Assembly: GCF_003334355.1 (NCBI RefSeq)
Contig: NZ_QOWP01000005.1
Direction: 5' to 3' (one strand)
Source of the DNA: Escherichia coli
Lineage (GTDB): Bacteria > Pseudomonadota > Gammaproteobacteria > Enterobacterales > Enterobacteriaceae
Length of the DNA: 64,000 bases
Made by a program: the position numbers and the translations under genes
The notes under the pieces: model-generated
The model's input: only the letters and a program-made list of their open reading frames with translations
The model's database searches: none
Told to the model about the DNA's origin: nothing
Shown: positions 56,400 to 56,467 of the stretch, piece by piece
How the letters are laid out: every line of letters starts with the position of its first letter
Position numbering within the stretch: position 1 is the first letter of the stretch

Positions 56400-56467
56400 T
56401 TGATTTAAATCAATAAAAACCACACATCAAGTATGGTCGCAAATGGATTTTATTGTTTTACATCAAC
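56400..56467 (-). promoter_or_regulatory. grcA promoter with two FNR-type sites (TTGAT-N4-ATCAA and TTGTT-N4-ATCAA) spaced 54 bp apart
   Basis: ttgatttaaatcaa at 56400-56413 (perfect FNR consensus) and ttgttttacatcaa at 56454-56467. Confidence 0.75.

Follow-up and report, generated by a model that had tools for sequence, protein, structure and literature searches.

In Escherichia coli K-12 the yfiD promoter is bound by FNR at two positions (Green 1998; Marshall et al. 2001; Wyborn et al. 2002). The regulon table of Myers 2013 lists FNR activation of yfiD together with a site at −40.5, and FNR at −93.5 down-regulates the promoter, as announced in the title of Green, Baldwin and Richardson 1998. 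According to published work, the wild-type promoter is more active under microaerobic conditions than under complete anaerobiosis, and its fully anaerobic activity becomes stronger once the upstream site is removed. It is further stated that ArcA is thought to activate yfiD through disruption of FNR binding, and that the α-CTD is reportedly uninvolved in the damping by upstream FNR. Induction of yfiD on a shift from anaerobic to microaerobic conditions has been described as well, with ArcA(+), FNR(+/−) and PdhR(−) listed as its regulators.

Paired sites of this protein family are found elsewhere. Two FNR boxes likewise lie at cydA and at ompW, 52 bp and 45 bp apart, respectively, when the coordinates of Table S6 are subtracted from one another (Myers 2013). 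In repression by upstream-bound CRP (PMC3445967) there are again two CRP/FNR-family sites, and the protein bound upstream influences the one bound downstream, as at yfiD. What distinguishes yfiD from the cydA, ompW and CRP cases is that its upstream dimer damps a class II activator.

The second system of relevance is hmp, whose regulation by FNR and NsrR is well documented. The E. coli NsrR operator has been described (Bodenmiller and Spiro 2006; Partridge et al. 2009; PMC5320621), as has an FNR site overlapping it in K-12 (Poole et al. 1996; Cruz-Ramos et al. 2002), and single 11-bp motifs were reported to be sufficient for NsrR binding (PMC5320621). For the Salmonella hmp promoter there is EMSA evidence of NsrR binding; the Salmonella target is AAGATGCATTTGATATACATCAT, which keeps a TTGAT-ATAC-ATCAT box.

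Here we compare with these systems a 64-kb stretch of DNA (the window) that carries both loci. The window is E. coli chromosome, collinear with that of K-12 BW25113 and 99.2% identical to it, and BW25113 served as the reference for annotation. Strain MLI023K1 was dropped as a reference on account of its IS1 and IS5 insertions, which are missing from the window. A 1-kb stretch around the grcA boxes occurs as a single copy in each of 5,426 complete E. coli genomes, and the genes annotated on it are grcA (formerly yfiD) and ung; the second locus is the glyA–hmpA intergenic region. The genes concerned are as follows.

55909..56292, minus strand: grcA (yfiD) coding sequence, autonomous glycyl radical cofactor of 127 aa, ATG at 56292 (annotation and translation)
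56597..57286, plus strand: ung coding sequence, divergent neighbour of grcA (annotation)
56293-56596: intergenic region shared by grcA and ung, 304 bp
25660..26850, plus strand: hmp (hmpA) coding sequence, NO-inducible flavohaemoglobin (annotation; ATG read from the sequence at 25660)

Every base of the grcA–ung and glyA–hmp intergenic regions is the same as in K-12. The grcA boxes and their 53-bp spacing are therefore those of the published yfiD promoter, here seen in a different E. coli strain, and the 23-bp hmp operator and its overlapping FNR box match the published ones. We consider it very likely that the two loci are together explained by a class II FNR promoter with an upstream damping site at grcA and by an hmp gene repressed mainly by NsrR. 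Positions, scores, geometry with respect to a −10 and conservation come from the present analysis, whereas occupancy and the sign of regulation are taken from the literature.

FNR and NsrR boxes in the window

The initial annotation, made from the letters of the window, had pointed to three FNR-type boxes and to an NsrR-type operator at hmp.

56400..56413, minus strand: FNR site I, TTGATTTAAATCAA, perfect palindrome and perfect consensus; class II activating site, centred at −40.5
56453..56466, minus strand: FNR site II, TTGTTTTACATCAA (TTGATGTAAAACAA on the grcA strand), one mismatch; weaker, down-regulating site, centred at −93.5
25611..25633, plus strand: NsrR operator of hmp, AAGATGCATTT-G-AGATACATCAA, a 23-bp imperfect inverted repeat of the 11-1-11 type
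25620..25633, plus strand: FNR-like box TTGAGATACATCAA, contained entirely in the NsrR operator, immediately past the −10; putative secondary anaerobic repressor site

The perfect TTGAT-TTAA-ATCAA palindrome before grcA and the TTGAG-ATAC-ATCAA box at hmp are both present where they had been read, and mismatches to TTGAT-N4-ATCAA number 0 for the proximal grcA site, 1 for the distal grcA site and 1 for the hmp box. The boxes were then scored by position weight matrix (PWM), the check that had been named in advance. The FNR PWM was built from 61 ChIP-bound sites of Myers et al. 2013 Table S6, with both yfiD sites left out. Its three best matches in the window are the proximal grcA site, the hmp box and the distal grcA site, at 21.6, 17.1 and 16.2 bits, respectively, and the match ranked fourth reaches only 11.65 bits. 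With the same PWM the ChIP-bound sites range from 12.0 to 21.0 bits around a median of 15.8, a value that the hmp box, second best in the window, exceeds. By consensus and by PWM all three boxes belong to the FNR sites, and all three lie above the published PatSer threshold.

The published scan agrees, since it passes all three boxes (Myers 2013 Table S6). In the portion of that table available to us, the PatSer scores at yfiD/ung are 17.25 (proximal) and 13.87 (distal), both under an FNR ChIP-seq peak, and that at glyA/hmp is 14.39; among the rows listed, 17.25 is the highest. Besides the ChIP-seq peak there is also a ChIP-chip FNR peak at yfiD/ung. Site II is the weaker of the two grcA sites on both the PWM and the PatSer scale.

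For NsrR the PWM was derived from 25 sites of PMC5320621 Table 4, with hmp left out. The best match in the window is again the expected one, namely the hmp operator at 25611-25633, with 17.0 bits and 0.11 such matches expected.

Lower-scoring matches were also recorded. The second-best NsrR match, at 40319-40341 (14.4 bits), was judged to be due to chance, 0.52 such matches being expected per random 64 kb; the ohsC sRNA (40363-40439) follows about 20 bp further downstream. Weaker matches to the FNR consensus occur within purL (33710-33723, 10.9 bits) and rseB (48446-48459, 11.7 bits), and both are among the predicted sites without a ChIP-seq peak (Myers 2013).

The two-site grcA promoter and its conservation

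Two further elements complete the grcA promoter region.

56372..56377, minus strand: putative −10 hexamer TATATA, starting 22 nt past the end of site I
56342..56358, minus strand: PdhR-like box AATTGGTAAAACCATTG, palindromic, spanning about +9 to +25 of the leader of grcA

The second site had been placed 54 bp further upstream than the first. Its presence and its position on the upstream side are borne out, since grcA is read from the minus strand and its ATG lies at 56292, but the spacing is 53 bp, whether taken from start to start or between the centres, which lie at 56406.5 and 56459.5 (53.0 bp or 5.05 helical turns). When site I is taken as −40.5, +1 falls at about 56366 and site II comes to lie at exactly −93.5; this placement of the transcription start in the present strain would follow from the geometry and from the K-12 literature. 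A σ70 scan of the grcA promoter gave no −35/−10 pair and no −35 hexamer, and conservation of the TATA in the −10 exceeds 95% in a comparison of 54 species. The geometry is that of a class II promoter, with a site placed at −40.5 by the literature and so within 1 bp of −41.5, a −10 element 22 nt beyond the box and no −35, and the tandem architecture is of the yfiD type, with a weaker second box 53 bp upstream on the same helical face. The grcA promoter is thus a class II FNR-dependent promoter in which the −35 hexamer is absent.

We suggest that, at low oxygen, a [4Fe-4S]-FNR dimer bound at 56400-56413 would recruit RNA polymerase to the TATATA −10 element and so switch on transcription of this "spare part" for pyruvate formate-lyase. 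Under full anaerobiosis, when active FNR is abundant, site II, weaker by about 5 bits, would become occupied too. The dimer bound there would damp activation; because the distal site would fill at high FNR and act negatively, the output of the grcA promoter is expected to peak microaerobically. Graded occupancy by FNR is hence the probable basis of the microaerobic peak. The initial annotation had found both sites consistent with anaerobic activation, which fits the proximal one but is only part of the picture for the distal one; the latter, according to published work, down-regulates. ArcA may counter the upstream FNR at grcA, and PdhR represses the gene until pyruvate accumulates, probably via the leader box. 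The consensus for PdhR is ATTGGT-N3-ACCAAT, and it is by likeness to this consensus that we take AATTGGTAAAACCATTG to be PdhR-like. This box is invariant in seven E. coli alleles. Repression of yfiD by PdhR has been published, and a PdhR-like box in the grcA leader fits with it.

Variation within the species avoids the boxes. The 77-bp grcA regulatory stretch is matched at 99% identity or more in only 1,520 of 5,412 E. coli genomes, and the region is therefore polymorphic. Across the seven E. coli alleles sites I and II are nevertheless invariant, while SNPs adjoin site I on either side, at 56399 and 56414; none of the 12 variable positions nearby hits any of the 28 box positions (P = 0.004). 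Likewise, all 22 intergenic variable positions in these seven alleles lie outside the interval from the grcA ATG to site I.

The 39-bp spacer between the FNR boxes has eight variable positions, clustered within 56414-56439, and five of these eight SNPs lie inside an imperfect inverted repeat (56418-56438, minus strand) that was flagged by the terminator scan. This part of the spacer could be a stretch bound by ArcA or IHF; enrichment of IHF in ChIP-chip overlaps the yfiD/ung sites (Myers 2013 Table S6). On the ung side, at 56509-56517, the E. coli alleles differ not by single SNPs but by replacement of a block, ACTCGTTTAAG versus ATGTCTTTTTG.

Beyond E. coli, one scan of species-representative genomes yielded 80 GrcA loci. 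In 79 of these 80, a site scoring 11.5 bits or more lies upstream of grcA, and ung is the divergent neighbour in 78. An FNR pair 52–53 bp apart is present in 59 of 64 Enterobacterales species, and the proximal site is the stronger one in 58 of these 59 pairs; in those 58 species the mean scores are 19.8 bits (proximal) and 14.6 bits (distal). The difference has a recurrent signature, as position 11 is A in 52 of the 58 distal boxes, whereas every one of the 58 proximal boxes has T there. Such conservation of a weak distal box, always in the same helical phase, agrees with the published model of graded occupancy. Pasteurellaceae keep the divergent grcA–ung pair without the 53-bp architecture (for example loci L051, L061, L065, L075, L082 and L087). 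They have one strong FNR site 127–143 bp from the grcA ATG, with a second site 42–44 bp away in 6 of 16 loci, and these sites lie upstream of a conserved promoter composed of a −35-like TTGAAA and a −10 of the sequence TGATAAAAT.

Three other accounts of the grcA boxes have to be set against this reading. That all the motifs are chance matches might be entertained on the grounds that intergenic regions are AT-rich and that the octamer AAGATGCA, found at hmp, is by itself not enriched in the window (4 observed versus 2.75 expected). A perfect TTGAT-N4-ATCAA is, however, expected only 0.09 times per window, and consensus sites with at most one mismatch number 7 against 2.58 expected, a count reached in 0 of 100 shuffles. 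In 300 random 64-kb windows generated by a first-order Markov model the mean number of sites of at least 16 bits was 0.21; none of the 300 had three or more such sites, and none had two within 120 bp. Since, in addition, the boxes are invariant while the bases flanking them vary, the pair is kept in 59 species and published ChIP data agree, the chance account has an almost negligible probability, and a chance origin of the motifs is refuted by statistics and conservation together. The distal box at 56453-56466 might instead serve the divergent ung promoter. It is part of the intergenic DNA common to both genes and is separated from the ung ATG (56597) by 137.5 bp; its distance to that ATG has a strong mode at 146–150 bp in related species, and, with grcA and ung divergent in nearly all loci, conservation alone cannot assign its target. 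Yet it is the distance to the proximal box that is fixed, at 52–53 bp in 59 of 59 pairs, whereas that to the ung ATG runs from 112 to 242 bp (sd 19). Published genetics link the distal box to yfiD output, and in the literature examined we found no FNR regulation of ung, so that a role of this box at ung is very unlikely. Finally, both sites could activate grcA, the upstream one as a class I-like co-activator of the class II site that would strengthen anaerobic induction. The spacing of 53 bp on the same helical face is compatible with this, and tandem CRP/FNR sites can act synergistically at other promoters, upstream CRP enhancing or repressing according to its position. Joint activation is nonetheless highly unlikely in view of the published findings on down-regulation from −93.5, on the gain in fully anaerobic activity upon upstream deletion and on the excess of microaerobic over anaerobic activity; the weakening of the distal site in 52 of 58 species also fits a site that fills only at high FNR activity. 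We therefore retain the reading in which the proximal site activates and the distal site damps.

The hmp promoter, its NsrR operator and the FNR-like box

At hmp the operator and the FNR-like box listed above are accompanied by the following.

25586..25615, plus strand: hmp σ70 core promoter, TTTACA at 25586-25591 and, as the −10, TATAAG at 25608-25613 or TAAGAT at 25610-25615
25636..25646, plus strand: AAGATGCAAAA downstream of the operator, repeating the core of the left half-site in direct orientation; weak and half-site-like

The promoter scan found TTTACA-18-TAAGAT, with 9 of 12 matches. Read on the opposite strand, 25611-25633 gives the published NsrR site of hmp, TTGATGTATCTCAAATGCATCTT, which is ChIP-seq positive for NsrR in CFT073 and has a PatSer ln P of −18.22 (PMC5320621). 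Its two arms are unequal. As NsrR half-sites, the left arm scores 16.0 bits and ranks first of the 127,980 11-mers in the window, and the right arm scores 1.5 bits. The initial annotation had placed the operator over the promoter and start region of hmp and seen in this a fit with repression, which we confirm: the operator overlaps the −10 (25608-25615) and the probable start, placed here by geometry and the K-12 literature. It had also described the FNR-like box as set between direct repeats of AAGATGCA. The two copies do lie at 25611-25618 and 25636-25643, the first being the left half-site of the NsrR operator, but the operator itself is the inverted repeat 25611-25633. The direct repeats were rejected as the NsrR operator because the published one is an inverted repeat and the second copy scores just 7.7 bits; by the half-site PWM this copy, AAGATGCAAAA, ranks 95th of 127,980, compared with 16.0 bits for the left arm.

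These features suggest that hmp has an ordinary σ70 promoter with NsrR as its main repressor. An NsrR dimer on 25611-25633 would cover the −10 and the start and so repress transcription; damage by NO to the Fe-S cluster of NsrR would cause the protein to leave, and hmp would be induced. The right arm of the operator would double as an FNR box, through which FNR may add anaerobic repression that is likewise relieved by NO. In the literature the FNR site of hmp is placed at about +5.5. All 14 bp of it are inside the NsrR operator, and NsrR and FNR therefore probably exclude each other at hmp, in which case FNR would bind only when NsrR is not there.

The initial annotation had invoked both regulators at hmp, and the ChIP-seq record divides between them: NsrR is positive, while there is no FNR ChIP-seq peak, hmp being among the predicted sites classed as "silent" (Myers 2013). 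This leaves room for the view that TTGAG-ATAC-ATCAA is the right NsrR arm and nothing else, its likeness to an FNR site having no function in vivo. In addition to the missing peak, such a view is favoured by the nesting of the box within the operator and by its distribution, as conservation of the FNR box at hmp was found in E. coli and Salmonella alone, against a widespread NsrR site (Rodionov et al.). The scores speak otherwise: at 17.1 bits as an FNR site, above the ChIP-bound median, and 1.5 bits as an NsrR half-site, this arm resembles an FNR site more than it does an NsrR arm. Myers 2013 also mentions earlier data supporting FNR binding at hmp, FNR repression of hmp is cited in the literature, and occlusion by NsrR in NO-free cultures would account for the missing peak. 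On balance we regard an arm without FNR function as unlikely, if less so than the alternatives considered for grcA, and prefer the reading in which the nested box can act as an FNR site. The role of FNR at hmp would then be conditional, and this part of the model is less secure than the part on NsrR because the ChIP-seq peak is lacking and the box is conserved in E. coli and Salmonella only.

Some other E. coli differ from the window just downstream of the hmp operator, either by an A7/A8 length change or by a 29-bp duplication. In the blood isolate MS14384 (locus L089, NZ_LR130562.1) there is a 29-bp tandem duplication of TTTGAGATACATCAATTAAGATGCAAAAA, which corresponds to window positions 25619-25647; this strain has two FNR-like boxes and three copies of AAGATGCA, and its hmpA ATG is shifted 29 bp downstream. 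The A-run at 25641-25647, between the operator and the ribosome-binding site, is A7 here and in K-12 and A8 in CU42ET-1. Variation in the length of this run is the likely reason why many of the 1,788 E. coli genomes in the 95–99% identity class fall there.

Other features of the window and meaning of the comparison

Several differences from K-12 and repeated elements were observed elsewhere in the window. In the iscR–iscS spacer, directly beside the iscRS stability element of Rfam (1320-1429), the window has a segment of about 127 bp that K-12 lacks (1431-1557). Both ERIC/IRU primer motifs are recognisable in this segment, with four mismatches each, and on the strength of these matches it is probably an insertion of an ERIC element. 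Upstream of iscR, at 2224-2408, are tandem repeats of about 91–94 bp (Rfam naRNA4/CssrE), an array that is 91 bp, or about one repeat unit, shorter than in K-12. Between glrK/qseE and purL, a REP-like palindromic element carries an insertion of 18 bp relative to K-12 (31442-31459); GlmY (31018-31165) is about 280 bp away from it. A dispersed element of about 130 bp is present in two copies that are 85–88% identical, one downstream of glyA (23930-24060) and the other near srmB/yfiE (54114-54242), the latter overlapping Rfam ES036/CssrF.

The regulatory arrangements at grcA and hmp are already known: both operators have been characterised in E. coli, where the same bases have been published, and they are textbook cases. 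As such they serve as a positive control, in that a reading of the sequence alone recovered three experimentally validated operators.

A more far-reaching proposal, which we put forward tentatively and hold to be possible but somewhat doubtful, is that the distal grcA box is deliberately sub-optimal, selection having acted on an oxygen set-point, that Pasteurellaceae have been re-wired and that the nested FNR box at hmp acts only after NsrR has left. If this were true, the T-to-A defect at position 11 and the fixed 52–53 bp offset would make the oxygen set-point of grcA a conserved, selected trait, and repression by FNR that is seen only after the departure of NsrR would explain why hmp is "silent" in FNR ChIP-seq.

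What is new is comparative. The two-site architecture of grcA, with its 53-bp spacing and weakened distal box, is conserved across Enterobacterales, SNPs within the species avoid both grcA boxes, and the arrangement in Pasteurellaceae is a different one. These comparative results support the published model of microaerobic tuning of grcA and leave that model unchanged.
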